A DNA stretch of 64,000 bases, taken from NCBI GenBank assembly GCA_963778575.1, contig CAVZUV010000003.1, forward strand, positions 17,903-81,902, written 5' to 3'. The notes under the pieces were generated by a model that saw only the letters and a program-made list of their open reading frames with translations, had not been told where the DNA came from and made no database searches. Source of the stretch: an uncultured delta proteobacterium (GTDB lineage: Bacteria > Desulfobacterota > Desulfobacteria > Desulfobacterales > UBA11574). Below, in pieces: positions 1,101 through 63,541 of the stretch. Made by a program: the position numbers and the translations under genes. The first letter of the stretch is position 1. Every line of letters starts with the position of its first letter.

Positions 1101-3029
1101 TCAAAGGATGACTTGTCCGGTCTTTTCCGTGCTGTATCCGCCCAGGGCTTCGACCTGCTTTTTGAACTTTTGCGAATGGATGGTTTCAAGAAGGATCTGA
1201 ATATTTTCAGATCCAAAAAAGTGTTCCGGAATAATAAGATCATACTGTTCCGTAACCACCGGAATAAAATCGAGGTCGAGCGCTTTGGCGGCGGCATAAA
1301 TGCCCAGCGTCACATCCGCCGTGCCGCTCTGAACCGCCACGGCCACTGACATGTGGGTAAATTCTTCATTTTCGTATCCAGTGACTTCGGATGGATCGAT
1401 GCCCAGTTGTCTGAGTCGAAAATCCAGAAGAATTCTGGTACCGGAGCCTGCCTGACGATTGATAAACCGGATGTCCTCGCGGCAAAGATCTTCGATACCC
1501 TTAAGGGCTTTAGGATTTCCCCGCGGCAGGATGAGCCCCTGGTCTCTCAGCACGAGATGGACCAGTTTGACCTTTATATCCGGCAGATATTTTTTGACAT
1601 ACGATATATTGTATGATCCGTCTTCCGTATCGAGAAGGTGGGATCCGGCCAAATGGCAGCCGCCCTTTTTAATGGCCATGAGACCGCCCATACTGCCGAC
1701 ATGACTCGAAGACAGGGTGAGGGTTTTTTGTCCGACCCGAATCTGGTTGGCCAGTACATCCAGTGTGTTGTCATGGCTTCCCACCACAACGATGGTATTC
1801 TGAATCGAAGAGAGCGGGCGCAACAGTTCAGCGTCGACGGGTTCCTGAGGGTTTATCCCTTCCAGATTTTTCGGTACCCGGATGATGCCGTCCGCTTCGG
1901 TCAAGGTCGTGATGCAGCCTGCGCCTCTGGGAAGCGGTATGGCTACAATTTTATCGCCTACCGCTCCCAGTTTTACCCGTATAAATTCTTCCAGTCCGAG
2001 CTTGGAAGCGATTTTCCGGGTGGGTTCCACTTGAACTTTCGGCCTTTCCTTTTCAGATTGGCCCAGCATAAAGGATATCAAAGGCCCGACAAACTGTTCA
2101 AAAGCAACGATAGCGGATACCGGGTATCCCGGCATCCCGAATACCGGTTTTTTTTTGATTTCACCGATTAACACCGGTTTCCCGGGCATAATGGTCACGC
2201 CGTGAACCAATACTTCACCCAGTTCATCCACCGCATGTTGGGTATAATCTCTTGACCCTGCGGACGAACCGCCGACGGTCAAGACCATGTCGACATCGCT
2301 GTTTACGGCATCCAAGACGGCTGTTTTAATTTTCATGGGATCGTCGGCGATCATATTGTGCCGGATAAAGGCGCCGCCGCAGGATTCGATCAGTTTTCCC
2401 AGAACAAAGGAATTGGTTTCAATCACCTGACCGGGCAAAAGATTTTCAACGGCTGTTTCACGCCAGTCGACAAGCTCGGACCCTGTTGGAATGATCAGCA
2501 CTCTGGGTCGGGCCAAAACCGGCACTTTAAAAATGCCGCCTGAAAGCAGGGCTCCCACACAATACGGGGTGATGACATGATATTGGGGAAAGAGAAGCTC
2601 GGTGGCCACAATATCTTCGCCAACTTTCCGAACGTTCTGCCAGGGAAATGCCGGCGCCTCGATCTCGATCCGGTCCTGGTCAATGACATGGACATACTCG
2701 ATCATGATCACCGTATCGGTGTTTTCGGGCATGACATGGCCGGTGTTGACATAGAAAGCATTTTTGCCGATAAGCAATTCCTTTGGCCGTGTTTCGGAAG
2801 CGCCGAAGGTATCTGCTGCTTTTACGGCGATACCGTCCATGGCGGACAAATGAAAATTGGGCGAGGAGATTACGGCCAATGCCGGTTCAGCCAAAATCCG
2901 GCCCACTGCATCGGGCACGGAGACCATTTCTTTGGAAATCGCTCTACCAATAAAAAATCGTTTAAAGAGAATCCCACGCGCCTCTTCCAGGGTTTTCATT
3001 TTTAAATAAATATTGCGTTTAGGGTTCAT
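1101..3029 (-). CDS. MoeA-like molybdopterin molybdo/tungsto-transferase fused to a C-terminal periplasmic-binding-protein-like domain
   Basis: 642 aa. The N-terminal ~400 aa are MoeA-like (SAMDGIAV, TGSELV, GGSSAGSRDY, PGKP, GMPGYPVS). The C-terminal ~230 aa resemble the PBP-like domain seen in archaeal-type MoeA fusions. An alternative start at M11 is possible. Confidence 0.8.
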   Translation of the reverse strand: MNPKRNIYLKMKTLEEARGILFKRFFIGRAISKEMVSVPDAVGRILAEPALAVISSPNFHLSAMDGIAVKAADTFGASETRPKELLIGKNAFYVNTGHVMPENTDTVIMIEYVHVIDQDRIEIEAPAFPWQNVRKVGEDIVATELLFPQYHVITPYCVGALLSGGIFKVPVLARPRVLIIPTGSELVDWRETAVENLLPGQVIETNSFVLGKLIESCGGAFIRHNMIADDPMKIKTAVLDAVNSDVDMVLTVGGSSAGSRDYTQHAVDELGEVLVHGVTIMPGKPVLIGEIKKKPVFGMPGYPVSAIVAFEQFVGPLISFMLGQSEKERPKVQVEPTRKIASKLGLEEFIRVKLGAVGDKIVAIPLPRGAGCITTLTEADGIIRVPKNLEGINPQEPVDAELLRPLSSIQNTIVVVGSHDNTLDVLANQIRVGQKTLTLSSSHVGSMGGLMAIKKGGCHLAGSHLLDTEDGSYNISYVKKYLPDIKVKLVHLVLRDQGLILPRGNPKALKGIEDLCREDIRFINRQAGSGTRILLDFRLRQLGIDPSEVTGYENEEFTHMSVAVAVQSGTADVTLGIYAAAKALDLDFIPVVTEQYDLIIPEHFFGSENIQILLETIHSQKFKKQVEALGGYSTEKTGQVIL

Positions 3030-3151: not shown

Positions 3152-4381
3152 TTATATGGGGATAACTTCGACCATAGCCCCCCTATCAAGTCCTTCGGTA
3201 TTCAACCCGATCTCGATCAACCCATCGGCGTTTACCATGGTATTGATGAGTCCTGACTTACCAAGTACGGGTTCGGCCCACAGCATGCCGTCTTTTTGGT
3301 ACAATTTTACGCGCACGTAGTCGGCCCGGCCCTGGGTGGATGAAACGTTTCTGCTAAGTTGTGCAATAAGATTGAACTGTTTTTTGTGCTCGGGCAAAAA
3401 GCCGGCGATATGTTCGATAAACGGTTTAACGACAATTTCGAAGACCACCATGGTCGAAGTCACCTGCCCGGGCAGCCCCCAAATGGCCCGGCGTTGAGAC
3501 CTGGCAAGAATCGTGGGTTTCCCCGGGCTTATGGAAATGCCGTGAACAAGAATTTCGGATTCAGGAAGGGCCGAGAACACTTCGATGGTGTAATCCCGGG
3601 TGCCCATGGAACTTCCTCCTGATATCAAAACCATATCGGATTGTCTCAGGGCGGCTGTGCATTTTTCGATAAGGTCGTCGAAATTGTCTCGAACAATGCC
3701 GTAGGTCATTGGAACCGCGCCGGATTTTTGTACCAATCCTGCAAGTGTATATGTGTTGATATCGCGAATCAGGCCGGGTTCGGGTATCTCCTTGATGGAT
3801 ACCACTTCATCGCCGGAAGAAATGATGCCGATGACCGGCTTTTTATAGACCGCGACCCTTTCTATGCCAAAGGCGGCTAATAGGCCGATTTCCTGAGGTC
3901 TGATCCGTTTTCCGGCCGGCACCAGGACAGCCCCTTTTTTGAAATCTTCTCCTTTTTCAAGAATGTTTTGCGCCGGCGCAACGCTTCGATAAACTTCTAT
4001 GGTTGTTTTATCGATGGCTTCCGTGTGTTCGATCATCACCACGCTGTCAGCACCCTTTGGCAACATACCGCCGGTTGAAATTCCGGCGGCCTCCCCCGCG
4101 TCGATGGAAAAATCGGGGATTGCGCCCATGGGAACGGAACCGATAACGGTCAGATACGCCGGATTTGATTCAGAAGCGCCAAAGGTTGAAGAAGCGCGGA
4201 CAGCATACCCATCCATGGTGGATCGCATAAAATTCGGAAGATCGACATCAGCATTCACATCTTGGGCAAGAATCCTGCCCATGGCGTCGACAAGGGGGAT
4301 GTCTTGGGTTTCAACCCTCGGAAAGCGCGGCACGTATCCCAGCACATTACCCAGGTCGGTAACTTTGAAAAATTCTTTCAT
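3152..4381 (-). CDS. moeA: Molybdopterin molybdenumtransferase MoeA
   Basis: 409 aa with MoeA motifs STMDGYAV, SSGDEV, SGGSSMGTRDY, PGKP and GLPGQVTS. Confidence 0.85.
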   Translation of the reverse strand: MKEFFKVTDLGNVLGYVPRFPRVETQDIPLVDAMGRILAQDVNADVDLPNFMRSTMDGYAVRASSTFGASESNPAYLTVIGSVPMGAIPDFSIDAGEAAGISTGGMLPKGADSVVMIEHTEAIDKTTIEVYRSVAPAQNILEKGEDFKKGAVLVPAGKRIRPQEIGLLAAFGIERVAVYKKPVIGIISSGDEVVSIKEIPEPGLIRDINTYTLAGLVQKSGAVPMTYGIVRDNFDDLIEKCTAALRQSDMVLISGGSSMGTRDYTIEVFSALPESEILVHGISISPGKPTILARSQRRAIWGLPGQVTSTMVVFEIVVKPFIEHIAGFLPEHKKQFNLIAQLSRNVSSTQGRADYVRVKLYQKDGMLWAEPVLGKSGLINTMVNADGLIEIGLNTEGLDRGAMVEVIPI

Positions 4382-5487: not shown

Positions 5488-5548
5488 TATAAATAAAAAA
5501 ACAAATGACCAATAACCGATGACAAAGCTCAAACAAGGAGCCGGAAAG

Positions 5549-6562
5549 ATGGAAGCGTATCTGTGGGAGTCGTTAGATGACAGCAGGGTAAAATGCAATC
5601 TTTGTAACCATCGCTGCAATATAAAAGACGGTCACCGCGGAATATGCGGTGTGCGTGAGAACCGCGGCGGCGTACTGGAAACATTGGTTTACGGAAAAGT
5701 GATTGCCCGGCACATCGATCCCATCGAGAAAAAACCGCTGTTTCATTATCTTCCGGGGAGTCTTTCCTATTCTATTGCGACAGTGGGATGCAACTTCAAA
5801 TGCCGATTTTGTCAGAATGCGGATATCGCCCAAATGCCGTCCGACCAAAACGGGAGAATCATCGGCGATGCTTTTACGCCGGAGGATGTTGTGGCTCAGG
5901 CGATAAAAGGGGATTGTCAAACGATTGCCTATACCTATACAGAACCCACCGTTTATTTTGAATTTGCCTATGACACGGCAAAACTCGCAGCGGAAAAGGG
6001 GATTCGAAATGTATTCGTCACCAACGGATACATGACCGAAGAAGCGCTTCAAATGATCCATCCTTTTCTTGATGCCGCCAACGTCGATTTGAAGGCATTT
6101 ACCGAAGATTTCTACCTGAAAACCTGCAAAGCCAAGCTTGTGCATGTGAAAGAGACGTTGAAGCGGATGAAATCCCTGGGAGTTTTTGTCGAAGTGACGA
6201 CACTGATTATTCCGGGATTGAACGATGACAGAAAAGAACTCGAAAATTTGGCGGCTTTTTTGGCAGATGAGTTGGGTCCGGAAACCCCATGGCATATCAG
6301 CCGGTTCCATCCCACTTATAAGCTGCTGGATCAGCCTCCGACCCCCGTTGAAACCCTGTTTAAGGCCCGTGACATCGCCAAAAAAGCCGGTTTGAACTAC
6401 GTGTATGTCGGCAATGTGCCGGGTGGGAAGGGGGAAAACACGTTCTGTCACCAGTGTAACCGACGCTTGATTGACCGATGGGGATTTTATGTCCGCGACA
6501 TTCGAATAAAAAACGGGAAGTGTCCGGAATGCGGTGCGGCGGTATACGGGGTGTGGGAGTAA
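5549..6562 (+). CDS. Radical SAM enzyme, AmmeMemoRadiSam-system / PflA-like type
   Basis: CNFKCRFCQN is a CxxxCxxC cluster. The N-terminal Cys-rich CNLCNHRCNIKDGHRGICGVR and the C-terminal CHQCN..CPECG are typical of this family. AGGAG lies 9 nt upstream of ATG 5549. Confidence 0.75.
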   Translation: MEAYLWESLDDSRVKCNLCNHRCNIKDGHRGICGVRENRGGVLETLVYGKVIARHIDPIEKKPLFHYLPGSLSYSIATVGCNFKCRFCQNADIAQMPSDQNGRIIGDAFTPEDVVAQAIKGDCQTIAYTYTEPTVYFEFAYDTAKLAAEKGIRNVFVTNGYMTEEALQMIHPFLDAANVDLKAFTEDFYLKTCKAKLVHVKETLKRMKSLGVFVEVTTLIIPGLNDDRKELENLAAFLADELGPETPWHISRFHPTYKLLDQPPTPVETLFKARDIAKKAGLNYVYVGNVPGGKGENTFCHQCNRRLIDRWGFYVRDIRIKNGKCPECGAAVYGVWE

Positions 6563-6566
6563 TTGC

Positions 6567-6734
6567 AGGAAGAAGGAAATGGGAAAGAGAAAATAGGAAA
6601 GAGGGTAAAGGAAACCACGGATAAACGAGAGTTGGTCAATTCGTCGAATGGTCGATTGGTCAAATCGTAAAAAACGATTCAACTGTTTAACCAACGTTGT
6701 TATCTCTTTTCTCTTTTCTAATTTCTATTTTCCC
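6567..6734. repeat. Purine-arm / pyrimidine-arm imperfect palindrome between convergent genes
   Basis: The left arm GGAAGAAGGAAATGGGAAAGAGAAAATAGGAAAGAGGG (from 6567) is partly complementary to the right arm TCTCTTTTCTCTTTTCTAATTTCTATTTTCCC (6703..6734). The centre carries three copies of GGTC(A/G)A(T)T. Confidence 0.6.
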
Positions 6735-12302: not shown

Positions 12303-15300
12303 TTACGCCATCCTTTCGACCTCCCTAAACCTATCTTCTATTCGCTTATTTGAAACCGGGACGGATGTTTTAAGTTCCTGTGCATAAATCGACACCTTAT
12401 ATTCTTCGATCAGCCAGTAAAGCGCTTCGACGGCGGCTTTCTTTTCTTCGGAAGCGGATTCGGAAAGTCCTTTCAGGAGTTGATTCAGTCTTTCGGTAAA
12501 AACGGCTACGACATCCGATTTTGTCCGATCTTTTTCGAGATCGACCATGCCCCGTTCCCCACGAATCACAAGCGCTTTCATATATCGGACAAGATGCACC
12601 ATTCGTTCGGGATCATATAGATCAATGAAATTTTCAGGTATTAATTTGGAAAGCTCGGCTCTTATCCCTTTTAGAAATTGTAAAACCACAGGGTTGGTCT
12701 TGTGCGCAACTTCGAAGGAATAAAGGGTGGTTCGTGTTTCGTGATAAGACTTGAGGACCGGCAGGCTGTGTTCCAGGAGTTCCCGGCCTTCGGTGACCAT
12801 GGATCGGGCCGCGACGTCAGCATGGGCATAAAAAGCGTTTCTGCTTCGGATGTTTTTAAAAAATAAGTTTTTGATGATGTGTTCAAACAACCTTTTTACA
12901 ACGCAGGCTGATCCGCCGAAATAATCCGCTGCTTTTTCCATATCTTTCGGCAATTTCAGCGCCTTTTTTAAAAATTTCAAATCCTTTGATAAATAAAGGG
13001 AAAAGAGCACGGCGACGCCTTCTCTGTGAGATGACAGTGCTGCTTCAAGGTTTAAAAAGAGACGCAGATTGACGCTTTTTTCTTTTTCACCGGCTTTTTG
13101 AAGCCCGGGGTAGACTGGCCATTTCGCCGAACCAATGCCTTTCAATTCGATGCTTTCGGGTAAGTCCGAAAAATTCCAGCCGGTAATGCCGTCCCGTTCC
13201 CACATTTTCTTTGCAGTGTATAGTTCAGGAGTCGGAATTGCCGGGCCTTTGTTTGAAATTCGCCGGCTCAGCAATGCCGGATCTCTGCCGGAGGAAAGTT
13301 CTTTTCCTTTTGTGTCGGTGATCGATATCCGCATCTTCAAATGATCCGGCAGAAGATCATCCGGCCAGGCAGATGCAGGGATATCGATGTTGAAACGGGT
13401 AAAGATAAAATTGCCGAGAGCCGTGATTAAGGAAGTCCGGGTTTTGGGCATTTCATTGATGACAATATCCACGGTATCGGCGACAGGGACCAGCTTTTTT
13501 CGATAATTTTTGGGCAATCCTTTGATCAGTGCAGTGATTTTTTCTTTGTACAGCCCGGGCACCAGCCATTCAAGAGATTCGGACGGCACGGAACCGGCCA
13601 TGGCGGCTGGAATACTTACGGTGACGCCGTCATCGGGGGTTCCGGGATCGAAGCGATACGCGCAGTCCAAACTCAGATGCCCAAGGTCAAGCCGGTCCGG
13701 GAAGCGTGACAGCTCTTCTTTATCCGGATCATACCGGATAATGTCTTCAGGCTTCATACGCAGGTTTCGGTCATTTGCCGTATCTTTGATATAAGTTTTC
13801 AGCGTCCTGATATCGAAACATTTTTCGAGCCGACGACTGTAAAAATCGAACAACTGCGCCTCGCTGACCAGAATATCTCTTCTACGGATCCGGTCCTCTA
13901 TATTCTCGACACCGTCAATGAGCTTTTGATTGTGATGCAAAAAATCAAACGTTTCATTGATATCACCGTCGATCAGCGCGCTTTGAATAAAAATTTCCGT
14001 TGCGCGGTCCGGATCGATGTTGCCATAAGGAACCTGCCGCTTGGGGATAATCACAAGACCGAAAAGACTGACCTGTTCGTAAGCCGTGACCCGACCATTT
14101 TTCCTTTCCCAGTGGGGGTGAAGATAGGTGCGCTTGCATAAGTTTCCTCCCAGGTCTTCCAGCCACGCGTTGTCGATATTTGCACAGGTTCTGGCGAACA
14201 GACGCGATGTTTCGATCCATTCCGCTGCGACGATCCATTCTTTAGCCGTATTGAACAGGGTCGATCCCGGAAAAATCATCACCTCTTTTCCTTTAGGCGC
14301 TTGAAAAATGTTCTTTTCCTTTTTTACGGCGATGTTGGATAAAAAGCCGCTTAAAACGGATTTGTGGATAGCGGTGTAAAGACGACTGAATTGTGTATCC
14401 GGAATCAGGTCTTTCGATTGTCGCCGGGGGAGGGAAACATGCTCCGGAATGCGCTTTTTTGCGGTTTTTTTTGTATCATTCATACGATATTCTGTCATTG
14501 TTTCGAAAAGCTGGGCATGAATATCCCGCCATTCCCGCATCCGCTTGAAGGAAAGGTAGTGACGTTTGCAGAATTTTTTAATGCGGCCGGTTGTTTTTTC
14601 TTTTTTCAAAACCTGTTGATAGGTATTCCAGATATTGAGCAGCGTGATAAAATCGGAAAAAGGATCACAAAACACTTTCTGGGCCTGATCCGCTTCCCGG
14701 GCTTTTTCAGCGGGCCTTTCACGGGGATCCTGAATACTAAGGGCAGCGGCGATTACGATCATTTCCTCAAGACACCCCTGGTTCCGAGCCTCAATAAGCA
14801 TTCTCGACAGTCTCGGATCGATGGGCATCTTCGCCATGAGTTCGCCTTTTTTCGTCAGTAAAAAGCGGCTGGTCTTTTTGGATTTTCGGTTTGACCCGGG
14901 AACAATGGCGTCCAGCTCGTAAAGGAGATCGAATCCGTCCTGGATGCTTTTTGCCGCCGGTTTGTCAATAAAAGGAAAATTCGATATATCCCCCAGATTT
15001 AGAGAAATCATTCGCAGGATAACTTCTGCAAGGTTGGCCCGTAAAATTTCAGGCGAAGTAAAAAGCGGCCGGTTTTCGAAATCGTTTTCGGAAAACAGCC
15101 GGATGCACACGCCGTTTTCCATGCGGCCGCATCTTCCTTTTCGCTGATCGGCGCTGCTTTTTGATATGCCGGTCACCGGAAGCGCTGTAATTCTCATCCG
15201 CGGCATATAATGGGATATTCGTGCAAGTCCCGTGTCGATAACATATTTGATACCGGGTATGGTGAGGGAAGTTTCGGCGATATTGGTGGCGACGATAATT

Positions 15301-16325
15301 TTTCTACCCGTACCCCGTGAAAAAACCCGGAACTGCTCGGATGCCGACAGCCTGGCAAACAGTGGCAGGATATCCGTATGACGGAAATTCTTTGCCTTGA
15401 TGAGTTCGCAGGTTTCACGAATATCTGCTTCCGTAGGCATGAAAATCAGAACATCTCCGGAATTTGTTTCTCTAAAAAGGCGGTTCAGTTCGCGGACGGC
15501 TGTCTCAACGTGGGTCTGGGGGTCGTCGTTTTCAATGGATATGTCTTGGGGTAAGTAACGCACCTTTACCGGATACATGCGGCCGGACACTTCGATCACC
15601 GGCGCATGATCGAAAGCTTTTGAAAATTTTTCGGTATCGATGGTGGCGGAGGTGACAATCAGTTTAAGGTTTTTTCTTTTTGTTAACAGCGTCTTTAGTA
15701 TGCCCAGGATAAAATCGATATTCAGACTTCTTTCATGGGCTTCATCCACAATGATGGTGTCATATTCATACAGGCCCGGATCATTTTGAGCTTCCGCCAA
15801 AAGCATGCCGTCCGTCATAATCTTGATAAAACCATTAGGACTCGTCTTGTCTTTGAATCTGATTTTATAACCGACGGACTTTCCGGGCACCTCTCCGAGT
15901 TCTTCGGCGATCCTTTGAGAGACCGTTATTGCGGCGATTCTTCTGGGCTGGGTACAGCCGATCTTTCCGTCGATCCCGCGGCCCGCGGCAAGACAGAACT
16001 TCGGTATCTGCGTGGTTTTCCCGGAGCCGGTTTCACCGGATATGATTACCACCGGATGATTTTTGATGGCCTCGATGATGTCGTCTTTTTTGGACAGGAT
16101 AGGGAGGGCTTCGTTGTAGACCGGTTCCGGCCGATGTATTTTGCGCCAGGCTCTTTTGTTGACGGATTTTTGAAGCCTTTTTTCGATAAGAATCAGTCGC
16201 CGGTTAATTTTTTCATGAGACGATGGCTTCTCTATTTGCCGTTTAATGCTGATGATGTCACGACGAACCGCGTGTCTGTCTGCAATCAGTGCGTTTGGCA
16301 ACAGCGATTCGATATTTTTAAACAT
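12303..16325 (-). CDS. hrpA: ATP-dependent RNA helicase HrpA (DEAH box)
   Basis: Motifs GETGSGKTTQIP, DEAHERS, SATID, TNIAETSLTIPG and QRKGRCGR, with the long HrpA C-terminal region. MFKNIESLL (ATG 16325) aligns with the HrpA N-terminus. The ORF-track start at 16385 would overlap the upstream gene. Confidence 0.9.
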   Translation of the reverse strand: MFKNIESLLPNALIADRHAVRRDIISIKRQIEKPSSHEKINRRLILIEKRLQKSVNKRAWRKIHRPEPVYNEALPILSKKDDIIEAIKNHPVVIISGETGSGKTTQIPKFCLAAGRGIDGKIGCTQPRRIAAITVSQRIAEELGEVPGKSVGYKIRFKDKTSPNGFIKIMTDGMLLAEAQNDPGLYEYDTIIVDEAHERSLNIDFILGILKTLLTKRKNLKLIVTSATIDTEKFSKAFDHAPVIEVSGRMYPVKVRYLPQDISIENDDPQTHVETAVRELNRLFRETNSGDVLIFMPTEADIRETCELIKAKNFRHTDILPLFARLSASEQFRVFSRGTGRKIIVATNIAETSLTIPGIKYVIDTGLARISHYMPRMRITALPVTGISKSSADQRKGRCGRMENGVCIRLFSENDFENRPLFTSPEILRANLAEVILRMISLNLGDISNFPFIDKPAAKSIQDGFDLLYELDAIVPGSNRKSKKTSRFLLTKKGELMAKMPIDPRLSRMLIEARNQGCLEEMIVIAAALSIQDPRERPAEKAREADQAQKVFCDPFSDFITLLNIWNTYQQVLKKEKTTGRIKKFCKRHYLSFKRMREWRDIHAQLFETMTEYRMNDTKKTAKKRIPEHVSLPRRQSKDLIPDTQFSRLYTAIHKSVLSGFLSNIAVKKEKNIFQAPKGKEVMIFPGSTLFNTAKEWIVAAEWIETSRLFARTCANIDNAWLEDLGGNLCKRTYLHPHWERKNGRVTAYEQVSLFGLVIIPKRQVPYGNIDPDRATEIFIQSALIDGDINETFDFLHHNQKLIDGVENIEDRIRRRDILVSEAQLFDFYSRRLEKCFDIRTLKTYIKDTANDRNLRMKPEDIIRYDPDKEELSRFPDRLDLGHLSLDCAYRFDPGTPDDGVTVSIPAAMAGSVPSESLEWLVPGLYKEKITALIKGLPKNYRKKLVPVADTVDIVINEMPKTRTSLITALGNFIFTRFNIDIPASAWPDDLLPDHLKMRISITDTKGKELSSGRDPALLSRRISNKGPAIPTPELYTAKKMWERDGITGWNFSDLPESIELKGIGSAKWPVYPGLQKAGEKEKSVNLRLFLNLEAALSSHREGVAVLFSLYLSKDLKFLKKALKLPKDMEKAADYFGGSACVVKRLFEHIIKNLFFKNIRSRNAFYAHADVAARSMVTEGRELLEHSLPVLKSYHETRTTLYSFEVAHKTNPVVLQFLKGIRAELSKLIPENFIDLYDPERMVHLVRYMKALVIRGERGMVDLEKDRTKSDVVAVFTERLNQLLKGLSESASEEKKAAVEALYWLIEEYKVSIYAQELKTSVPVSNKRIEDRFREVERMA

Positions 16326-16366
16326 ATCGGTAAAACCTAATAGGAATTCAGGAGATGCGCATCCCC

Positions 16367-17071
16367 TCAGCACGCACCTTTGCATGCGCGTTTCAATGCC
16401 TTAAGAAGCGCGGCTCTGTGAAATTCACCGGCCAGATGCACCGGACTTTTACCGTAGATCGGATCCCAGGCCGAAGGATCCGCCACACAGAAATATTGCA
16501 CTTCAAGTCCGATTCGGACCGGGGCTTCTTTGACGGAAAGACCTTCAACACGCTGTGCCGCCTCCCAGGTCGCTTTGCAAGGCGCCCCCCGGACCACTTC
16601 AATGCGATCGATACGACCTTGGGAAACCTTTACGGTAAACTCCGGCATGCCAAACATGTTTCCATAATCACCCAGGCAGACCTGCCTGGAGAGACCGCAT
16701 CATGTGGGCGGCGTCAGGACGCCCTCGACGTGTAACTTTTTCCCGGAAGCCACCACCGGGATTTTTTTGTCACGGCAAAGTGCGGCAAGATCATGGGATA
16801 GGTCCGGATGTTTTAAATAGTCCAGAACCAGATCCGCCTGAAAGTTTCGGGGAATGTATTTTGTGGTATCGTCGATAATTTCAGGCAGCGTTTCATTGAT
16901 GGATACCACTTCCACGGTAAAACGGTTGTCGCCGTATTGCCGGATGCCTTCTATTTTTTTTTCACCGCTGTTGTTTTGCTGGAAAACCAAAATCTTTTGT
17001 GGTTTGGCGCCAGGTTTCAGTTCTCGTGTTTTTGATGCGATACCGGTTGTGCATTCAATGTCTTTTTCCAT
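16367..17071 (-). CDS. DUF166/COG1810-like protein with an in-frame UGA, predicted selenocysteine (234 aa)
   Basis: ORFs 16700..17071 and 16367..16657 are in the same frame, separated only by TGA (16702..16700) plus 14 sense codons. The junction reads ...VLTPPT-U-CGLSRQVCLGDYG. A SECIS-like hairpin follows the UGA. Confidence 0.7.
16668..16702 (-). promoter_or_regulatory. Bacterial SECIS-like element downstream of the in-frame UGA
   Basis: The RNA is UGA UGC GGU CUC U-CCAGGCA-GGUC-UGCCUGG. It forms a perfect 7-bp stem (plus-strand 16672..16689) with a GGUC loop about 10 nt after the UGA. The apex GCAGGUCUGC is the same string as in the E. coli fdhF SECIS minihelix (recalled from memory). Confidence 0.65.
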
Positions 17072-17080
17072 TTTATCTAC

Positions 17081-18946
17081 TTACACTCCATATTCGAGGT
17101 ATTCTCGTTTTTTTTCAAACTCAGCCTTTTTTTCTTCAAGGCTGGCCGTGGATTGCTCAAGTTCATCAAAGAGGGTATCGATGGCCGATTGGCAGCGATG
17201 GATGGATCGAGAGAGATCGCCGATCTTCTCACCATCGCCGGCCTGTGAAGCCGCCAGCATATCCGCATTGAGTTCGTTGAGCTCTTTTTCATATTTTTCG
17301 ATCCGATTTTCAATACTTAAAATTCGTTGCTCCAAGGGTTTGAGGATCTTGGATCGTTCGGCAATAAATGTGGAACGTATCCGTCTTTTTTCTTTTTTGG
17401 TCAACTTAACCGGCGATTCACCGTTATCCATTTTTTCGGAAAAGGATTTTAAAGCGTCTGTTTCGTCCGCCCATCCGCCTTTTTCCAGAAACCGCTGATA
17501 CCCCCCCTCGAACACATGGATACCGTGATTCTGAAATACGATGAGACGCTCGGCAAGCGCGTGCAAAAACATTTCGTTATGCGTCACCATGATGACTGTG
17601 CCGTCAAAATTGTCGATGGCGGCAAGCATTGCATCGCATGATTCCATGTCGAGGTGATTGGTGGGTTCATCGAGAAGCAAAAGATTTACCGGAGTGACGA
17701 GAAGTTTTCCAAGAATCACCCGGCTTTTTTCTCCACCCGAAAGAACAGCGATTTTTTTCAAAGCAGCATCACCTTCAAACATCATTGCGCCACAGATAGT
17801 CCTTGCCTGCTGGCGGTCGACATCCGGGTGTGAGAAGAGGATTTCTTCTTCAACGGTTCTCGATCCATCCAGATTCATGACATTGCTCTGTTCAAAATAT
17901 CCTTGTTTAACGGAGGGATTCAGTGAGATGTCGCCGCTGTGGGGTTTAAGTGCCCCGGACATCAGCTTTAAAAGTGTTGTTTTGCCTTTACCGTTTTTCC
18001 CGACCACACAGATCCGTTCCCCGGCCTTTGCCGAAAAGTTGAGATCTCTGATCAACGGTTTTTCGGGCTCGTACGAATAGGAGAGGTGTCCAATCTTCAT
18101 AACATCTTTTTTAGGATACGGGGCGCTTCGAAAAGAAAAATCAAGGTCCTTGATCCGCTCCAATTTATCTTTTTTTTCCATTTTAGACAGAGTCTTGATC
18201 CGCGACTGAACCAAACCGGCCAGCCTTGCCTTGGCCCTGAACCTGTTGATAAACAGCTTTATCTCTTTTTTGCGCCGTTCGTCGTTGAGGCGGGTCTTTT
18301 CGTAAATCTCTTCGTCCTGGGCGATCTGCGCATAATATTTTTCAGTATTTCCGGTCAGTTTTCTGATCTTGTGGCGATGAATTCCGAGGGTGTGTGAAAT
18401 CACCTTATCCATAAAGCTTCTATCGTGGGTGATAAGCATCAGTTCGCGAGGCCAGCGGATCAGATAACGTTCTACCCATCGAATGGAAGTAATGTCCAGA
18501 TAATTGGTGGGCTCATCCAAAAGCAGCAGATCAGGTTCGGAGACGAGCACCTTTGCAAGGTTCAGTCGAACCTGAAAACCTCCTGAAAATTCTTCAGGAG
18601 GCCGGTTGAAGTCCTCTTTGGAGAACCCGAGTCCTGAAAGTATTTCTTCGACTTTCCATTGGCAGTCTTCCTGGTCTTCACGAAGCCCGGTCATTCCCTC
18701 TGCGAGCACGGTGTCTTTTGTGAACTCAATCTCCTGGCGAACATATCCGATACGGTAATGTTTGGGGATGACAATATCTCCCGAATCATAAGGTATTTGT
18801 CCGGTGATGAGTCGAAAAAGGGTGGTTTTCCCGTGTCCGTTTCGACCAACGACCCCGATCTTTTCTTTAGGGTTCAGTTTAAAACCAGCTTTGTCGAAGA
18901 GCACCTCCGCGCCGTAGCTTTTTGTTAAATTTTCAACGGTTATCAT
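17081..18946 (-). CDS. ABC-F family ATPase (two ABC domains, no TMD)
   Basis: Two Walker A motifs (GRNGHGKTT, GKNGKGKTT) and two signature motifs (FSGGFQ, LSGGEK), plus a C-terminal coiled-coil tail. The start is taken at MITVENLTKSYG (ATG 18946). Confidence 0.85.
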   Translation of the reverse strand: MITVENLTKSYGAEVLFDKAGFKLNPKEKIGVVGRNGHGKTTLFRLITGQIPYDSGDIVIPKHYRIGYVRQEIEFTKDTVLAEGMTGLREDQEDCQWKVEEILSGLGFSKEDFNRPPEEFSGGFQVRLNLAKVLVSEPDLLLLDEPTNYLDITSIRWVERYLIRWPRELMLITHDRSFMDKVISHTLGIHRHKIRKLTGNTEKYYAQIAQDEEIYEKTRLNDERRKKEIKLFINRFRAKARLAGLVQSRIKTLSKMEKKDKLERIKDLDFSFRSAPYPKKDVMKIGHLSYSYEPEKPLIRDLNFSAKAGERICVVGKNGKGKTTLLKLMSGALKPHSGDISLNPSVKQGYFEQSNVMNLDGSRTVEEEILFSHPDVDRQQARTICGAMMFEGDAALKKIAVLSGGEKSRVILGKLLVTPVNLLLLDEPTNHLDMESCDAMLAAIDNFDGTVIMVTHNEMFLHALAERLIVFQNHGIHVFEGGYQRFLEKGGWADETDALKSFSEKMDNGESPVKLTKKEKRRIRSTFIAERSKILKPLEQRILSIENRIEKYEKELNELNADMLAASQAGDGEKIGDLSRSIHRCQSAIDTLFDELEQSTASLEEKKAEFEKKREYLEYGV

Positions 18947-23232: not shown

Positions 23233-23308
23233 GCCAGAGTAGCTCAGTTGGTAGAGCGCCTCACTTGTAATGAGGATGTCGCGGGTTCAACTCCTGTCTC
23301 TGGCTCCA
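23233..23308 (+). tRNA. tRNA-Thr (anticodon UGU), CCA encoded
   Basis: Hand-folded cloverleaf: acceptor GCCAGAG/CTCTGGC, anticodon arm CCTCA-CTTGTAA-TGAGG, T-loop TTCAACT. Confidence 0.85.
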
Positions 23309-23327
23309 TATATGAAAATGTCTTTCA

Positions 23328-23412
23328 GGTGGGGTTCCCGAGTGGTCAAAGGGAACAGACTGTAAATCTGTCGGCGAAGCCTTCGGAGGTTCAAATCCTC
23401 CCCCCACCACCA
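23328..23412 (+). tRNA. tRNA-Tyr (GUA), class II long variable arm, CCA encoded
   Basis: Acceptor GGTGGGG/CCCCACC, anticodon arm ACAGA-CTGTAAA-TCTGT, T arm GGAGG-TTCAAAT-CCTCC. Confidence 0.9.
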
Positions 23413-23575
23413 GCCCCAAGGTAAGTCGTATGTAGGAGATTTCAGTGTGGTATATTGAAATCGAGAGAGACTACATGGCTTCTTACGTAACACGTACTAC
23501 ACTTTTTTGAGGAAACTTATAAACATCATCATCTTAAAGAAGAAATATTTTTCAGGTTATTTTTAGGGCATATGA

Positions 23576-23651
23576 GCGGGAGTAGCTCAGTTGGTAGAGC
23601 TCTAGCCTTCCAAGCTGGATGTCGCGAGTTCGAGTCTCGTCTCCCGCTCCA
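23576..23651 (+). tRNA. tRNA-Gly (UCC), CCA encoded
   Basis: Acceptor GCGGGAG/CTCCCGC, anticodon arm CTAGC-CTTCCAA-GCTGG, T arm GCGAG-TTCGAGT-CTCGT. Confidence 0.9.
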
Positions 23652-23735
23652 CGTTGCGTATTAATAGCCTTAATTGGAATATAAAATATTGTGACCAGTT
23701 TTTTTTGCTCAATCAAGGAAGAACTATGAAAAAGT

Positions 23736-23812
23736 GCCCACGTAGCTCAGTAGGTAGAGCGCTTCCTTGGTAAGGAAGAGGTTCACCGGTTCAATTCCGG
23801 TCGTGGGCTCCA
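23736..23812 (+). tRNA. tRNA-Thr (GGU), CCA encoded
   Basis: Acceptor GCCCACG/CGTGGGC, anticodon arm CTTCC-TTGGTAA-GGAAG, T arm CCGGT-TCAATTC-CGG. Confidence 0.9.
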
Positions 23813-23906
23813 TTATTTAACGTAACAGGCCTGTACGGATAATCATAAAGGGCCTTCATTTGTGTAAAACCGAGCACCTTGCTAAAAATCAATTCCAACA
23901 AAGCAT

Positions 23907-25115
23907 GGGAGGGTTTCGAAGATGGGTAAGGAAAAATTTGAGCGGACCAAGCCGCATGTAAACGTGGGTACGATCGGTCATATCGATCACGGGAAGACGA
24001 CATTGACGGCGGCGATTACGAAGCATATGGGCCTGAAGGGGATGGCGAGTTATGTACCGTTTGATCAGATCGACAAGGCGCCGGAGGAGAAGGAGCGGGG
24101 GATAACCATAGCGACGGCGCATGTTGAGTATGAGACGGCGAATCGTCATTATGCGCATGTGGATTGTCCGGGTCATGCGGATTACATCAAGAACATGATT
24201 ACGGGAGCGGCCCAGATGGACGGGGCGATATTGGTGGTTGGCGCCGACGACGGTCCGATGCCCCAGACGCGGGAACACATATTGTTGGCGCGTCAGGTGG
24301 GGGTTCCTCAGATTGTAGTATTTTTAAACAAGTGTGACATGGTGGATGATGAAGAGCTGATAGAGCTTGTTGAGTTGGAGCTTCGGGAATTATTGGACAA
24401 GTATGAGTTTCCGGGGGATGACACGCCGATCATTCGTGGGAGTGCGTTAAAGGCGCTTGAGAGTGATGATGCGGACAGTGCGGAAGCGAAGTGTATATTT
24501 GAGTTATTGGAAGCGGTGGACACGTTTATACCGGAGCCCCAGCGGGATATCGACAAGCCGTTTTTGATGCCGATAGAGGATGTATTCAGCATATCGGGAC
24601 GAGGGACGGTGGTAACGGGTCGCGTTGATCGCGGGGTTATTCATGTCGGAGATGAGATAGAGGTAGTAGGGATACGTCCGACGATGAAGACGGTGTGTAC
24701 CGGGGTAGAGATGTTCAGGAAGCTTTTGGATGAAGGGCGAGCGGGAGACAACATCGGGGTATTGATGCGCGGGACGAAGCGAGACGAAGTTGAGCGTGGT
24801 CAGGTGGTGGCGCAGCCGAAGACGATAGAGCCGCACACGAAGTTCAAGGCGGAGGTATACATATTGAGCAAGGAAGAGGGAGGCCGTCACACGCCGTTTT
24901 TCAACGGGTATCGGCCGCAGTTTTATTTTCGGACGACGGATGTTACGGGGAATTTAACATTACCGGAAGGGGTAGAGATGGTGATGCCCGGTGACAATAT
25001 AACGATTACGGCAGAGTTGATAACGCCCATAGCGATGGAGAAGGAATTGCGGTTTGCCATCCGGGAAGGCGGCCGGACAGTGGGCGCCGGCGTGGTGAGC
25101 GATATTTTAGCGTAA
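23907..25115 (+). repeat. 1209-bp direct repeat, copy 1 (tuf plus 15 nt of RBS region)
   Basis: By-eye comparison shows identity with 38755..39963. The forward and three antisense ORF translations are identical between copies. Identity starts at GGGAGGGTTTCGAAG and ends at the stop codon. Confidence 0.9.
23922..25115 (+). CDS. tuf: Elongation factor Tu (copy downstream of the tRNA cluster, tufB-like position)
   Basis: 397 aa with [22 protein letters not shown] and SAL. The context thr-tyr-gly-thr tRNAs-tuf matches the E. coli tufB operon. Confidence 0.97.
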
Positions 25116-25134
25116 CATCTGAAGGAGTTTTCTG

Positions 25135-25284
25135 GTGAGAATAATTATTACCCTTGCATGTAATGAATGCAAAAGAAGAAATTATACGACAACGAAAAAT
25201 AAACGTACAACACCGGACAAGTTGGAATTCAGCAAGTATTGCAGGTTTTGCAGAAGACATACGATGCATAAAGAGACCAAGTGA
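25135..25284 (+). CDS. rpmG: 50S ribosomal protein L33
   Basis: Own translation from GTG 25135: [49 protein letters not shown] (49 aa). It is below the ORF-track length cutoff. Confidence 0.9.
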
Positions 25285-25368
25285 ACAAAATCGTTTATAA
25301 CCTGAATTCTGTGAGATATGGTTCGTTTGGCTATAGCAAGATCGGATTCTTGAAGGGCCGAATTATGC

Positions 25369-25444
25369 AGGCCAGTAGCTCTAACGGTAGAGCATCGGAC
25401 TCCAAATCCGGGTGTTGGGGGTTCGAATCCCTCCTGGCCTGCCA
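25369..25444 (+). tRNA. tRNA-Trp (CCA anticodon)
   Basis: Acceptor AGGCCAG/CTGGCCT, anticodon arm TCGGA-CTCCAAA-TCCGG, T-loop TTCGAAT. Confidence 0.9.
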
Positions 25445-28994: not shown

Positions 28995-31900
28995 ATGTCG
29001 GAAAGGCTTTTGGCATACAGACGCATAAGAAAAAATTTTGGGAAAATAGCCAAAATAATTGATATTCCTAATCTTATTGCGGTACAGCAGGAATCCTACA
29101 ATCGATTTTTGCAAAAGGATGTTCCTCCGGAAAAAAGAAGAGAGATCGGTTTGCAAGCGGTGTTCAAGTCGGTGTTTCCCATAAAAGATTTCACAGGGAC
29201 CGCTTCTCTTGAATTTGTGGGGTATCGATTTGGAGAAGTCAAACACAGCGTTCAGGAATGCATGCACCGGGGAATGACTTATGAGATTCCGCTTCGTATC
29301 ACCGTAAGACTGGTTGTATACGACATCGATAAAGAGTCGGGGGTTACAAATATCCGCGATATCAAAGAGCAGGAGATATACTTTGGTACGATTCCCTTGA
29401 TGACCGATAATGGGACATTTATCATTAACGGTACTGAACGTGTCGTGGTAAGCCAGCTTCACAGATCTTCCGGCGTGTTTTTCGATCATGACAAAGGCAA
29501 GACGCATTCCAGCGGCAAGGTCATATATACTTCCCGGATTATCCCTGTGCGCGGGTCGTGGATCGATATGGAGATCGATCATAAAGATATCGTTTATATT
29601 CGAATTGACAGGCGCCGGAAGCTTCCGATTACCATTCTTTTTAAAGCCTTCGGATATAATTCCGAGGACATTCTGGCCTATTTTTATAAAACGGAAAAAT
29701 TCGTTACCCAAGGCAAACGGCTGTTTAAAAAAATTGATGAGGACCTGGTGAAAGGTCAACGTGCCAGTCGGGATGTAAAGGATCCCAAAACCGGTGAAAC
29801 CATTGTTGCTAAAGGACGGGCATTTACCAAAGTTGCACTTAAACGTCTCGGTTCAGCGAATATCGACATGATTCCAATCAGTGCCGAAGATATTACCAAC
29901 GGCGTTTTTTTCAAAAAGATCGTTAATCCCGAAAATGGAGAACCGATAGTCAAATGCAACCAGAAATTTGACGAAGAGACTTACCAGACCTTGCAAGATA
30001 ACGGTATTACCGAATTTGATCTGCTTTATATTGACGGCGTAACCACCAGTGATTCCATTCACAAGACATTGCTTTTGGATAAAGTCGAAACAAAAGAGGG
30101 AGCGCTCATTGAGATCTATCGGAGGCTGAGGCCCGGGAATCCCGCGACACCCGAAGTAGCCCAAGATTTTGTTGATCACATGTTTTTTAAGTCTTCTTAT
30201 TATGATCTTTCCGGTGTCGGGCGAATGAAAATCAACATTCGTTTAGGCATCAACTCATCCATTCAATTAAGAACCCTTAGGAAGGAGGATATCCTCCTTA
30301 CAACGAAAACGCTGTTGGAACTCAAGGATACGCAGGGCGCGGTTGATGATATCGATCACTTGGGGAATCGCAGGGTGCGTGCCGTCGGGGAACTCCTTGA
30401 AAATCAATACCGTATCGGGCTGGTCAGAATGGAACGCGCCATTAAGGAAAGGATGAGTCTGCAAGAGGTCGATGCCCTGATGCCCCACGATCTTGCCAAT
30501 CCCAAGCCGGTTTCAGCGGTGGTTAAAGAGTTTTTCGGAACCAGCCAGCTTAGCCAATTCATGGATCAGACAAATCCGCTGTCGGAAACAACGCACAAAA
30601 GACGTTTGAGTGCTCTGGGCCCCGGAGGATTGACCCGTGAAAGGGCCGGCTTCGAGGTCAGAGATGTTCATCCGTCGCATTACGGACGAATTTGTCCCAT
30701 AGAAACACCGGAAGGACCCAATATCGGCCTTATTGTATCCCTGAGCACATATGCCCGGGTGAATGAATATGGTTTTATTGAAACACCGTACAGCGTTGTT
30801 AAAGGCGGTACCGTGTTTGAAGATGTAAAATTCCTTACCGCCTTTGAAGAAAAAGAACATCCCATTGCCCAGGCGAATGCATTGCTTGACGAAAAGAGAA
30901 GATATATCAATCCATTGGTAACGTCGAGGGTGGGCGGAGAATTCATGATGGTAAAAGCGGATGATATCGAGCTGATGGATATTTCTCCCAACCAACTGGT
31001 CAGTGTTTCAGCATCCCTTATTCCGTTTCTTGAAAATGATGACGCCAACAGAGCATTAATGGGATCGAATATGCAGCGTCAGGCCGTTCCTTTGATGGTC
31101 AGCAAGGCGCCTCTGGTGGGTACCGGCATCGAAGGAGTGGTGGCCAAGGACTCCGGCGTTACCGTGGTAGCGCGGCATAACGGCATCGTTATGGATGTGG
31201 ATGCTTCCCGGATCGTTTTGAGACATGAAGACAAAGATGGCGACGAGTCTTCCGAGATGCCGGTTACGGTTTACAACCTCTCAAAATTTATTCGTTCCAA
31301 TCAGAATACATGTTTTAATCAACGCCCTATTGTCAGAAAAGGACAAAAAATAATAGCCGGACAGATCATCGCTGACGGCCCGGCGACAGACCACGGCGAA
31401 CTTGCCCTTGGAAAAAACATTACCGTGGCTTTCATGCCGTGGGGTGGATATAATTTTGAGGATTCCATTCTCATGGGTGAAAGGCTTCACCGGGACGGCG
31501 TATATACCTCTGTACATATTGAGGAGTTTGAAGTCGTTTCCAGGGATACCAAGCTTGGCAAGGAAGATATCACCCGCGATATCCCAAATGTGGGTGAAGA
31601 GGCTTTAAAGGAACTGGATGACAGCGGTATTATCAGGCTCGGCGCCGAGGTGAATCCGGGAGATATTCTGGTGGGTAAAATTACGCCCAAAGGTGAAACA
31701 CAACTTTCGCCTGAAGAAAAACTTTTACGGGCTATTTTCGGAGAAAAAGCCGGGGATGTGAAGGATACTTCTCTGCGGGTTCCTCCCGGTGTTCAGGGGA
31801 TTGTTATCGATGCCAAAGTTTTTTCAAGGCGTGGCGTCGAAAAGGACGAACGCACCCGATGGATCGAAGATACCGAAATCGCCGGCCTTGAAAAAGAAAG

Positions 31901-33098
31901 AGATGATAAACTTTTCGTTATTCAGGCTGTGGTTCGCACGAAGCTTGAAAAATTGCTGGTTGGGCAGACCAGTCTTTCACCTTTGAAAAAAGGGAAAAAA
32001 GTTCTGATTCAAAAAGGGGATACCATAAACGCCGATATGCTGGCGGAAATACCTGTGGCTCAACTTGAAGGGATTGTTTTAAAGGACTCTCAGCTAACCG
32101 AGCAGACCCACGATATGCTTGAGCGATATCGGGAACAGTGTGACATCTGCAGAAACGAATTCGAGCGGCAGGTCGGCCGATATGAAAAAGGAGACGATCT
32201 CCCGCCGGGCGTTATAAAAATGGTTAAGGTCTATGTCGCCATGAAACGGAAGCTTTCCGTGGGTGACAAAATGGCCGGTCGGCACGGGAACAAGGGCGTC
32301 GTGTCGAGAATTCTTCCCCAGGAGGATTTGCCATATTTTGAAGACGGGACTCCGGTGGACATGATTTTGAACCCTTTGGGAGTGCCTTCCAGGATGAATG
32401 TCGGCCAGGTTTTGGAAATACATTTGGGTTGGGCTTCCAAAGGCCTTGGCGATCAACTCAACAAACTTCTTGAAGAACATAAGATTGAAGCGCTTCGAGA
32501 CAAAATCAAAAGAATATTTGAAGAACCGTCTACGAATGAGATGGTCGACGGCTTTGATGACAAAGAAGTGTGTGAGTTCGTAAAAGATTATAAAGACGGT
32601 GTCCACATGGCCACGCCGGTTTTTGACGGCGCCAAGGAAGCAGAAATCAAATCTCTCCTAGAAGAAGCGGGACTCAGCCCGAGCGGCCAGACAACGCTTT
32701 ATGACGGGCGCACCGGTGAACCTTTTAAAGAAAAGATTACCGTCGGCACGATGTATATATTGAAACTTCATCATCTTGTGGATGACAAGATCCATGCCAG
32801 GTCCATTGGCCCATATTCGCTGGTGACACAGCAACCGTTGGGCGGGAAAGCACAATTCGGAGGTCAGCGCCTTGGAGAAATGGAAGTCTGGGCGATGGAA
32901 GCCTATGGAGCGGCCCATGCGCTGCAAGAATTTTTAACCGTAAAATCGGATGACATGGCCGGTAGAACACGCATGTATGAAAAGATCGTAAAAGGTCAAA
33001 ATACGCTGGATCCGGGCCTGCCCGAGTCATTTAAAGTGTTGACCAAAGAATTGAAGAGTTTGGGCCTGGATATAACACTTTTAGAAGGAAAACAATAA
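28995..33098 (+). CDS. rpoB: DNA-directed RNA polymerase subunit beta
   Basis: 1367 aa with conserved beta motifs throughout (for example [38 protein letters not shown]). Confidence 0.98.
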
Positions 33099-33113
33099 AA
33101 CAGGAGAAAGTAA

Positions 33114-36100: not shown

Positions 36101-37511
36101 TCTTGCCCATGGTGCAAAGGTTGAAATGGGACAGGCGGTGGGCATTCTTGCCGCCCAATCGATCGGTGAACCCGGCACCCAGTTGACCATGCGGACGTTC
36201 CATATCGGCGGAACTGCGAGCAGAAGGGTTGAACAGGCTGATATCCGGGCCAGGGTAGACGGCACGGTTAAATTCGTAAATATCAATGTGGTCCAAAAAG
36301 ACAGACATCGATTTGTGGTAATGAACCGCAGGGGTGGCGAAATATCCATTATCGGCGAAACCGGTCGAGAGAGAGAACGTTTTCCGGTCATTTACGGCGC
36401 TCATATAGAGGTCAAAGACGGCACCAAGGTTAAAGCCGGAGATCTTTTAGTGACGTGGGATCCGTTTACAACCCCCATCATTACGGAAGTTGACGGTGCC
36501 GTTAAATTTGGTGATATCACAGCGGGTAAAACCATGCAGGAAAAAGTCGATCCTGTTACCGGGAAATCGAGCCGAACGATCATAGAGTCCAAAAGCGGTG
36601 AGGAGCGTCCAAGGATATCCGTTAAGGACAAGGATGGGAAAACAGCCATCTTACCGGGTTCTTCACAAGCCGCCCGATATTTGTTGCCCATAAATGCCAT
36701 TTTATTGGTTGAAGAAGGAGATGATGTTAAGGCCGGAGATGTTATCGCCAAGCTGCCGCGCGCCACGACCAAGACAAAAGATATCACCGGTGGTCTGCCA
36801 AGGGTGGCGGAGCTTTTTGAGGTTCGAAAACCAAAAGAAACCGCTGTGTTGAGTGAAATCGACGGTTATGTTTCAATATCGAAGGCAACCAAGAAGGGCA
36901 AACAGAAAATTACTGTTACACCGGTAGATGTCGGTGAAAAGAAAGAATATTTGATCACGCGGGGCAAACATATCAATGTTTACGAAGGGGATTACATCAG
37001 GGCGGGTGAAGCGCTGATCAGCGGTTCCTCCATCCCCCAAGACATACTGAATATCAAAGGTGAAATTGCCCTGGCCCGGTATCTTGTAGATGAGGTTCAG
37101 GAGGTCTACCGTTTGCAAGGTGTTCGAATAAACGATAAACATATTGAAGTTATCGTAAGACAGATGATGCGACGTGTTAAAGTCCTTGATGCGGGAGATA
37201 CGGATTTTATTCTTGAAGAACAGGTGGATCGGGTCCAATTTGAGGAAGCGAATCAGGCCGTTATCAAAAAAGGGAAGAAACCCGCTGTTGCCGGACCTCT
37301 CATTTTGGGCATTACCAAGGCGTCTCTTTCGACGGAAAGTTTTATATCCGCCGCTTCATTCCAGGAAACAACCAAAGTGCTCACCGACGCCTCTATTGCA
37401 GCAAAGGAGGATTATCTGGCCGGGCTCAAGGAAAATGTTATTATGGGAAGACTCATGCCCGCCGGAACCGGTCTTTTTAAGTATAAAGAATTGGATATTA
37501 TTTCGAATTAA
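33114..37511 (+). CDS. rpoC: DNA-directed RNA polymerase subunit beta-prime, carrying an extra ~100-aa internal domain
   Basis: 1465 aa. Features include the Zn finger [29 protein letters not shown], the bridge helix and a trigger loop with an SI3-like insert. Confidence 0.98.
34830..35129 (+). other. Parvulin/PpiC-type PPIase-like domain inserted in-frame in rpoC (residues ~573-672)
   Basis: The segment is [93 protein letters not shown]. It aligns motif-by-motif with E. coli PpiC (ALHILV..IKNGADFGKLAKKHS....GGDLGEF......F......GP....FGYHIIKV). Confidence 0.7.
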
Positions 37512-57367: not shown

Positions 57368-57419
57368 CCAACCTTAATAATATCGGATGTTTTTCAAAAG
57401 AACTTAAGTAAAAAATAAA

Positions 57420-62358: not shown

Positions 62359-62360
62359 GA

Positions 62361-63536: not shown

Positions 63537-63541
63537 GAAAC

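Follow-up and report, generated by a model that had tools for sequence, protein, structure and literature searches.

A DUF166 (DfsP) gene with an in-frame UGA and a conserved SECIS-like hairpin: a predicted selenoprotein of an uncultured delta proteobacterium

The closest described relatives of the gene considered here belong to the 'conserved protein COG1810', one of six new selenoprotein families described from the symbionts of Olavius algarvensis (Zhang & Gladyshev 2007, Nucleic Acids Res 35:4952, PMC1976440). One COG1810 selenoprotein gene each was found in the delta1 and the delta4 symbiont, and the SECIS is drawn in Figure 5D of that paper (PMC1976440). Two reviews include a 'DUF166 domain-containing protein' in their lists of prokaryotic selenoproteins, under pfam02593 in one and under NF041372 in the other, with the motif column empty in both. 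In all of these published descriptions (PMC1976440 and the reviews) the selenium in DfsP/COG1810 proteins is a computational prediction. NCBI's PGAP names such proteins DfsP, and we use dfsP for the gene.

The window analysed here is a 64-kb stretch of DNA from an uncultured delta proteobacterium. A preliminary description of this DNA had read two adjacent ORFs as a single DUF166/COG1810-like selenoprotein gene, a reading that is supported by matches to NF041372 and PF02593 and by the alternation of Sec and Cys at the codon concerned. The same description allowed, conditionally, for a new selenoprotein family. That claim falls because the family was published as a selenoprotein family in 2007 and has a curated NCBI model (NF041372), in addition to its entries in the two reviews; the finding is a correct rediscovery of an already known family.

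The dfsP frame and its in-frame UGA

On translation, ORFs 17071..16700 (123 aa) and 16657..16367 (96 aa) of the minus strand proved to lie in a common frame, separated by a sole stop, the TGA at 16702..16700, just as the preliminary description had it. Its further statements that the joined protein has 234 residues with a PPT-U-CGL junction, and that the 14 codons from the UGA to the first Met of the second ORF are all sense codons, are also correct; the junction reads in full ...LTPPT-U-CGLSRQVCLGDYGN-MFGMPEF. Its argument from the lack of a convincing start in either half is of no use, since the N-terminal half begins with a normal ATG 9 nt past the stop of the upstream gene and in every assembly examined both halves were picked up by gene callers. 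The terminal stop of dfsP is a TGA too (16369..16367). Judging from the comparisons set out below, it is highly probable that 17071..16367 (minus strand) is a single gene, dfsP, encoding a 234-residue DUF166 selenoprotein with Sec at the UGA, inserted by way of the hairpin that follows it (Table 1).

Table 1. Positions in the window of dfsP, its predicted decoding elements and its flanking genes
Feature	Position	Strand	Remarks
ABC-F family ATPase	17081..18946	-	NCBIfam ABC-F matches; 621-aa gene call on L083; ends 9 nt before the dfsP ATG
dfsP, complete CDS (predicted)	16367..17071	-	234 codons + TGA stop; called as two ORFs; PF02593, NF041372
UGA, predicted Sec codon 124	16700..16702	-	aligns with Cys of Cys-form homologues; TGA in 66/77 loci and 10 assemblies
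Cys125 codon	16697..16699	-	directly 3' of the predicted Sec codon; invariant across the whole DUF166 family
Putative SECIS hairpin	16671..16690	-	stem 16689..16683 with 16678..16672, plus U.G 16690/16671; within codons Ser-Arg-Gln-Val-Cys-Leu-Gly
Apical loop GGUC	16679..16682	-	second G at +22, U at +23 (U of UGA = 1)
Cys165 codon (GAPC motif)	16577..16579	-	invariant family-wide
Cys195 codon	16487..16489	-	invariant family-wide
HrpA-type DEAH helicase	12303..16325	-	directly downstream of dfsP; Pfam families of the 1340-aa call on L083

Family searches were run on the joined 234-aa protein with U written as C. The NCBIfam equivalog NF041372, 'DUF166 family (seleno)protein DfsP', matches end to end with 336.6 bits against a cut-off of 200 (E = 4.9e-101), residues 25-227 aligning with model positions 1-203 of 203. 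Pfam PF02593 (DUF166) matches residues 28-227 over profile positions 1-220 of 221 (152.7 bits against a gathering threshold of 24.4, E 1.4e-44). Among 5.8 billion proteins searched, 765 relatives came up, and where these are full-length the junction is TPPT-C-CGL. This bears out the T-C-C given in the preliminary description for Cys-containing members, and homologues thus neither end at the UGA nor lack a Cys aligned with it. The DfsP motif T-[U/C]-C-G/A-L accordingly appears as TPPT-U-CGL in the window and as TPPTCCGL in the Cys forms. Within the stretch that the two-ORF annotation treats as spacer, C125, L127, G134 and Y136 are invariant in a 26-sequence alignment of close relatives. Many DUF166 proteins (e.g. 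P0015, P0019, P0023 and P0046) carry the JGI name 'thymidylate synthase', which we rejected; it is unsupported by Pfam or NCBIfam and is apparently a legacy name.

A scan of GTDB species representatives yielded 80 loci, nearly all from Desulfobacterales, Syntrophobacterales and other Thermodesulfobacteriota, and the best identity of the window protein to any GTDB representative genome is 71%. We typed the codon at the Sec position in 77 related loci, comprising 75 of these 80 and the short metagenome contigs L001 and L002. It is TGA in 66 and TGC or TGT in the remaining 11; with the window added, TGA stands in 67 of 78. Among the closest species-level genomes most loci are Sec forms (66/77, 86%), a point that goes beyond the published tables. 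Carriers of the TGA form include the cultured Desulfonema magnum 4be13 (L024) and Desulfoferrobacter suflitae DRH4 (L079).

These data bear on the possibility that the gene is a pseudogene or truly split, or that the TGA is an assembly or sequencing error, so that the two ORFs would be independent or dead. Gene callers do give two ORFs that each match DUF166, and many database entries consist of such halves. Against this, the TGA recurs in independent DNA. The exact 123-aa ORF is present on 9 and the exact 96-aa ORF on 14 metagenome contigs (JGI, Logan); in each of 10 loci read back from the 14 contigs the TGA and the hairpin recur unchanged and the annotation shows two genes, and the seven loci in which the whole gene was compared show 0-2 mismatches over dfsP. 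The same codon is TGA in the 66 of 77 loci described above, both halves and the linker between them are conserved at the protein level, and a conserved, covarying hairpin (see below) follows the TGA in TGA forms only.

The database halves themselves also speak against a split gene, since they end exactly at ...TPPT, the artefact expected of a Sec codon. Among the best 150 cluster representatives from a library of 1.84 billion proteins, at least 17 are N-terminal fragments that match no further than profile position 112, the last one ahead of Sec, and many other representatives are C-terminal fragments that begin at the first start codon after the UGA. Twelve sequences were read back. Seven of them (P0134, P0136, P0142, P0144, P0148, P0152 and P0170) are N-terminal halves that stop just before the Sec codon, ending in TPPT, TPLT, NPPT or TPPI, and the other five (P0138, P0139, P0141, P0143 and P0150) are C-terminal halves. 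Taken together, the recurrence of the TGA, the conservation on both sides of it and the place of the cut effectively refute a split gene, a pseudogene or an error, to which we assign a very small probability. Split annotation is the rule for DfsP/DUF166 in public protein sets, and because the halves are cut at the Sec codon, both family size and Sec usage are under-counted. The practical value of reading dfsP as one gene lies in correcting annotation, with little new biology.

We also considered a genetic code that would read UGA as sense, for Trp or Gly. The two database proteins closest to the window protein, P0001 (L001:534-1226) and P0002 (L002:109-801), do have Trp at the Sec position, yet in both cases the DNA there is TGA, and the contigs L001 and L002 translated under code 11 do not give the database sequences. 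The Trp residues therefore indicate that these short contigs were translated by a gene caller with a UGA=Trp code; such calls hide selenoproteins as seemingly full-length 'W' variants. In the window, TGA ends 11 of 41 long ORFs and dfsP itself. In-frame TGAs with frames open on both sides were scanned throughout the window as further selenoprotein candidates and none lies in the frame of a real gene, so that no other conserved gene of the window contains an in-frame TGA. A code with UGA as sense is refuted by this stop-codon usage, and we give it practically no weight.

The hairpin downstream of the UGA

As described above, a hairpin follows the UGA, and the preliminary description was right to call it perfect and to place it ten nucleotides downstream. 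A 10-nt spacer (16699..16690, minus strand) leads into a perfect 7-bp hairpin, CCAGGCA/GGUC/UGCCUGG, at 16689..16672, which the U.G pair 16690/16671 lengthens to 8 bp (dG -13 kcal/mol). Within the 64-kb window its apex GCAGGTCTGC is found a single time, 0.03 occurrences being expected by chance. The 10-nt apex GCAGGUCUGC is identical to that of the E. coli fdhF SECIS at 10 of 10 nt, as had been claimed; the fdhF reference used here was a 46-nt stretch with a 100% match to fdhF in 5,419 of 5,426 E. coli genomes. The spacing of the loop G-U had been given as 22-23 nt from the UGA 'as in fdhF'. Counting from the U of the UGA, the first part is correct (+22/+23), and the second is off by 1 nt, the fdhF loop G-U being at +23/+24.

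A bacterial SECIS is recognised as a stem-loop that lies within the coding sequence and begins about 10-11 nt 3' of the UGA, with a G of the apical loop at about +22 to +24 and a structure that is kept in UGA orthologues and lost in Cys orthologues. The dfsP hairpin has the placement and, with G at +22 and U at +23, the loop position, and its distribution among orthologues, detailed below, follows the third rule. The upper stem of the fdhF SECIS has a bulged U (U17), a feature specific to recognition by E. coli SelB that bacterial SECIS elements at large can do without. No such bulged U is present in the dfsP hairpin of the window, whose stem is perfectly paired; among 62 relatives, pair 22-35 is a C.U mismatch in 22, which can be read as a bulged U on the 3' side.

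Compared with shuffled sequences, the folding energy of the dfsP hairpin is unexceptional (z = -0.94 for 35 nt and -0.66 for 71 nt). The authentic fdhF SECIS is likewise unexceptional (z = -1.33), and folding thermodynamics is therefore non-discriminating here; what discriminates is conservation. A covariance-model search of the hairpin region, as suggested in the preliminary description, produced no match to a SECIS family of Rfam, either over the whole window at the gathering threshold or over 16300..17150 at E <= 10 (two chance hits). The miss reflects the coverage of the library for this hairpin and is no evidence against its function.

The segments of 62 distinct Sec forms align without gaps. 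In this alignment every sequence has the second loop G and at least 90% have the first, so that conservation of the hairpin in orthologues, on which the preliminary description had staked its reading, is indeed found. The stem positions are paired in 87.8% of cells, as against 13-62% when the 3' partners are slid, and RNAalifold recovers the identical helix from the Sec-form alignment. At pair 21-36, 48 of the sequences have CG, 12 have AU and 1 has GC, while in 1 the pair is broken; this pair shows 13 double changes. The covariation score was reached by 0 of 500 column shuffles; since these shuffles ignore relatedness, the slid-partner control is the more telling of the two. The AU variants arise by synonymous changes (TCC-AGG...CTG-GGN to TCA-AGG...CTT-GGN), so it is the RNA, rather than the peptide, that is under constraint.

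None of the 11 Cys-form loci has the GGUC loop; their peptide varies over the hairpin stretch, and the mean folding energy of the same 30-nt stretch is -7.5 kcal/mol, as against -10.8 kcal/mol in the Sec forms. Two of the Cys-form loci, L070 and L048, retain what looks like a decayed remnant of the SECIS stem (e.g. TCCCGGCAGCCCTGTCTGGGA) without GGUC in the 30 nt that begin 7 nt past the Cys codon, which suggests a recent replacement of Sec by Cys followed by decay of the element.

Predicted decoding and genomic context

From what is established about bacterial Sec decoding, we infer the following course of translation. When the ribosome reaches the UGA at codon 124, the hairpin 10 nt downstream would act as a bacterial SECIS and would recruit SelB-GTP-Sec-tRNA(Sec), so that Sec would be inserted at the UGA some 10-11 nt upstream of the hairpin in place of termination. 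Translation would then run on to the second UGA (16369..16367), where, with no hairpin present, normal termination is expected. The predicted product carries a vicinal Sec124-Cys125 pair.

A rival reading is that the UGA is decoded without selenium. Near-cognate read-through might insert Cys or Trp, or translation might mostly terminate and leave a 123-residue N-terminal domain, with the hairpin acting only to stimulate pausing or read-through; this would apply if the organism lacks the Sec pathway or seldom uses it. There is some ground for such a view: ARAGORN finds no tRNA-Sec in its 64 kb, none of selA, selB and selD is among the window ORFs scanned, and Se incorporation in DfsP is a prediction. 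The element itself argues the other way, having a GGUC apex of SelB type with an invariant G at an fdhF-like distance from the UGA, as does the alternation of Sec and Cys at the codon, a classic selenoprotein signature. Moreover, the nearest relatives are Desulfobacterales and Syntrophobacterales, a lineage described as one of the richest in selenoproteins (PMC13188914). We consider selenium-free decoding improbable, and Sec insertion at codon 124 remains much the better reading.

An ABC-F family ATPase gene precedes dfsP and a HrpA-type helicase gene follows it (Table 1). There is no terminator-like site on the minus strand in the 9-nt gap between the ABC-F gene and dfsP, and the two are therefore probably co-transcribed. 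When the ORFs of 78 loci were clustered, ABC-F recurred upstream, in 16 of the 59 loci with enough flank, as did HrpA downstream, in 5 of 54 loci; no other neighbours recurred. OmpA/MotB-like, AOR-like, MreB and PspF proteins are sporadic neighbours. The neighbourhood of dfsP is weakly conserved and holds nothing metabolically informative.

Several other features of the window were noted in passing. Two MoeA-type molybdopterin molybdotransferase genes stand in tandem on the minus strand at 1101..3029 and 3152..4381, a 642-aa long form (NF011068, 769 bits) and a 409-aa short form. The 642-aa ORF is of SelB-like size and was examined as a candidate for SelB; it was rejected because it encodes a molybdopterin protein of MoeA type, and the remaining ORFs of the scan are unrelated too. 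At 5519..6562 (plus strand) lies a gene for an AmmeMemoRadiSam-system radical SAM enzyme (TIGR04337, 376 bits), overlapped by a 373-aa antisense shadow ORF (5573..6694) that matches no family. The plus-strand ORFs 23922..25115 and 38770..39963 are both 397 aa long, the first being EF-Tu (Pfam, by way of the copy on L087); ORFs of RpoB and RpoC size lie between them (28995..37511), and a cluster of tRNA genes (Thr-Tyr-Gly-Thr, and Trp) occupies 23233..25444. The pair of 397-aa ORFs looks like a duplicated tuf arrangement.

Towards the far end of the window, a c-di-GMP-I-GGC riboswitch aptamer was identified at 57271..57371 on the minus strand (RF03167, 69.1 bits against a gathering threshold of 59), with no obvious ORF of at least 40 aa in the roughly 600 nt that follow it on that strand. 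Minus-strand genes at 59819..63566 encode PorA-like and PorB-like 2-oxoacid:ferredoxin oxidoreductase subunits and then a GltD-like NAD(P)-binding protein of 549 aa whose C-terminal domain is a PorD-like ferredoxin; the next gene, at 58115..59728, is for a class I fumarate hydratase.

Possible function and comparison with known systems

An AlphaFold2 model of DfsP is of good quality (pLDDT 90.3, pTM 0.85) and is of little help in assigning a function. A sequence search of the PDB with DfsP found no relative, the best matches being DARPins at E > 0.002, and a fold search of the PDB with the model found none either (TM <= 0.30). The N-terminal alpha/beta half of the model taken alone resembles flavodoxin-like and Rossmann-like domains, a generic likeness.

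A profile search of 1.84 billion representatives gave only 352 relatives. When 31 of these were aligned with the window protein, among them archaeal members (Hydrothermarchaeota, Asgard/Wukongarchaeota and Methanoperedens) at 23-32% identity, C125, C165 and C195 proved invariant. The position of Sec itself is Cys in some members of the wider DUF166 family and T, G, M, L, F or V in others. Since the three Cys are invariant family-wide, Sec (Cys elsewhere) is most likely an extra redox or metal-ligand residue added to a conserved thiol-based active or metal site. That Sec adjoins one of three Cys invariant in bacterial and archaeal DUF166 proteins, and so marks a likely active or metal site, is a second respect in which the present analysis extends the published tables. 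Sec could serve as a fourth ligand, or as a resolving or redox partner, beside the three-Cys site; the chemistry of the U-C site is speculative.

An adjacent pair of this kind occurs in mammalian thioredoxin reductase, whose C-terminal Gly-Cys-Sec-Gly contains a vicinal Cys-Sec redox centre. By analogy, the neighbouring Sec and Cys of DfsP could form a selenenylsulfide. The two proteins differ in that the order in DfsP is U-C and not C-U, the pair is internal and not C-terminal, and the folds are unrelated; the U-C pair of DfsP may instead take part in metal ligation together with Cys165 and Cys195, in place of redox cycling.

The only known phenotype in the DUF166 family is that of the archaeal gene MMP_RS05055 of Methanococcus maripaludis. 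The deletion strain is unable to fix CO2 unless complemented in trans, and the gene shows cofitness with CODH/ACS and CooC2 (bioRxiv 10.1101/2024.03.05.583561). MMP_RS05055 and DfsP belong to the same Pfam family, DUF166. MMP_RS05055 is, however, a member of a distant archaeal subfamily, and the 23-32% identity given above is that of other archaeal representatives to the window protein and not of MMP_RS05055 itself. One may speculate from the phenotype of this archaeal homologue that, in sulfate-reducing and syntrophic Thermodesulfobacteriota, DfsP is a selenium-dependent accessory factor of the CODH/ACS Wood-Ljungdahl machinery, or one that matures or reductively activates it. Sec124-Cys125 with Cys165 and Cys195 would then make up a site for metal handling or for a selenenylsulfide, Sec and not Cys would be the usual form in the clade, and most public entries would be mis-split. 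We regard this scheme as a whole as rather unlikely, and the link to CODH/ACS within it as speculative; the neighbourhood lends that link no support, since no CODH/ACS or cooC gene is a neighbour of dfsP in 78-80 bacterial loci.

As for the hairpin, its nearest described counterpart is the SECIS of E. coli fdhF. Both elements lie in the coding sequence just 3' of the UGA, both have the apex GCAGGUCUGC with a GGUC tetraloop, and the distances of the loop G-U from the UGA agree to within 1 nt. The dfsP hairpin differs in that its upper stem has no bulged U, its lower-stem sequence is another one and its loop is 1 nt nearer the UGA.

The comparison with the DfsP/COG1810 selenoproteins is closer still. 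Like them, the window protein gives a full-length match above the cut-off, has its predicted Sec at a Cys position, is encoded with a SECIS-like hairpin 3' of that codon and comes from a deltaproteobacterial (Thermodesulfobacteriota) host. It has Lys for the usual Gly in the GAPC(G/K)ATW motif. Nothing of substance separates the window gene from the described family, of which it is another orthologue.
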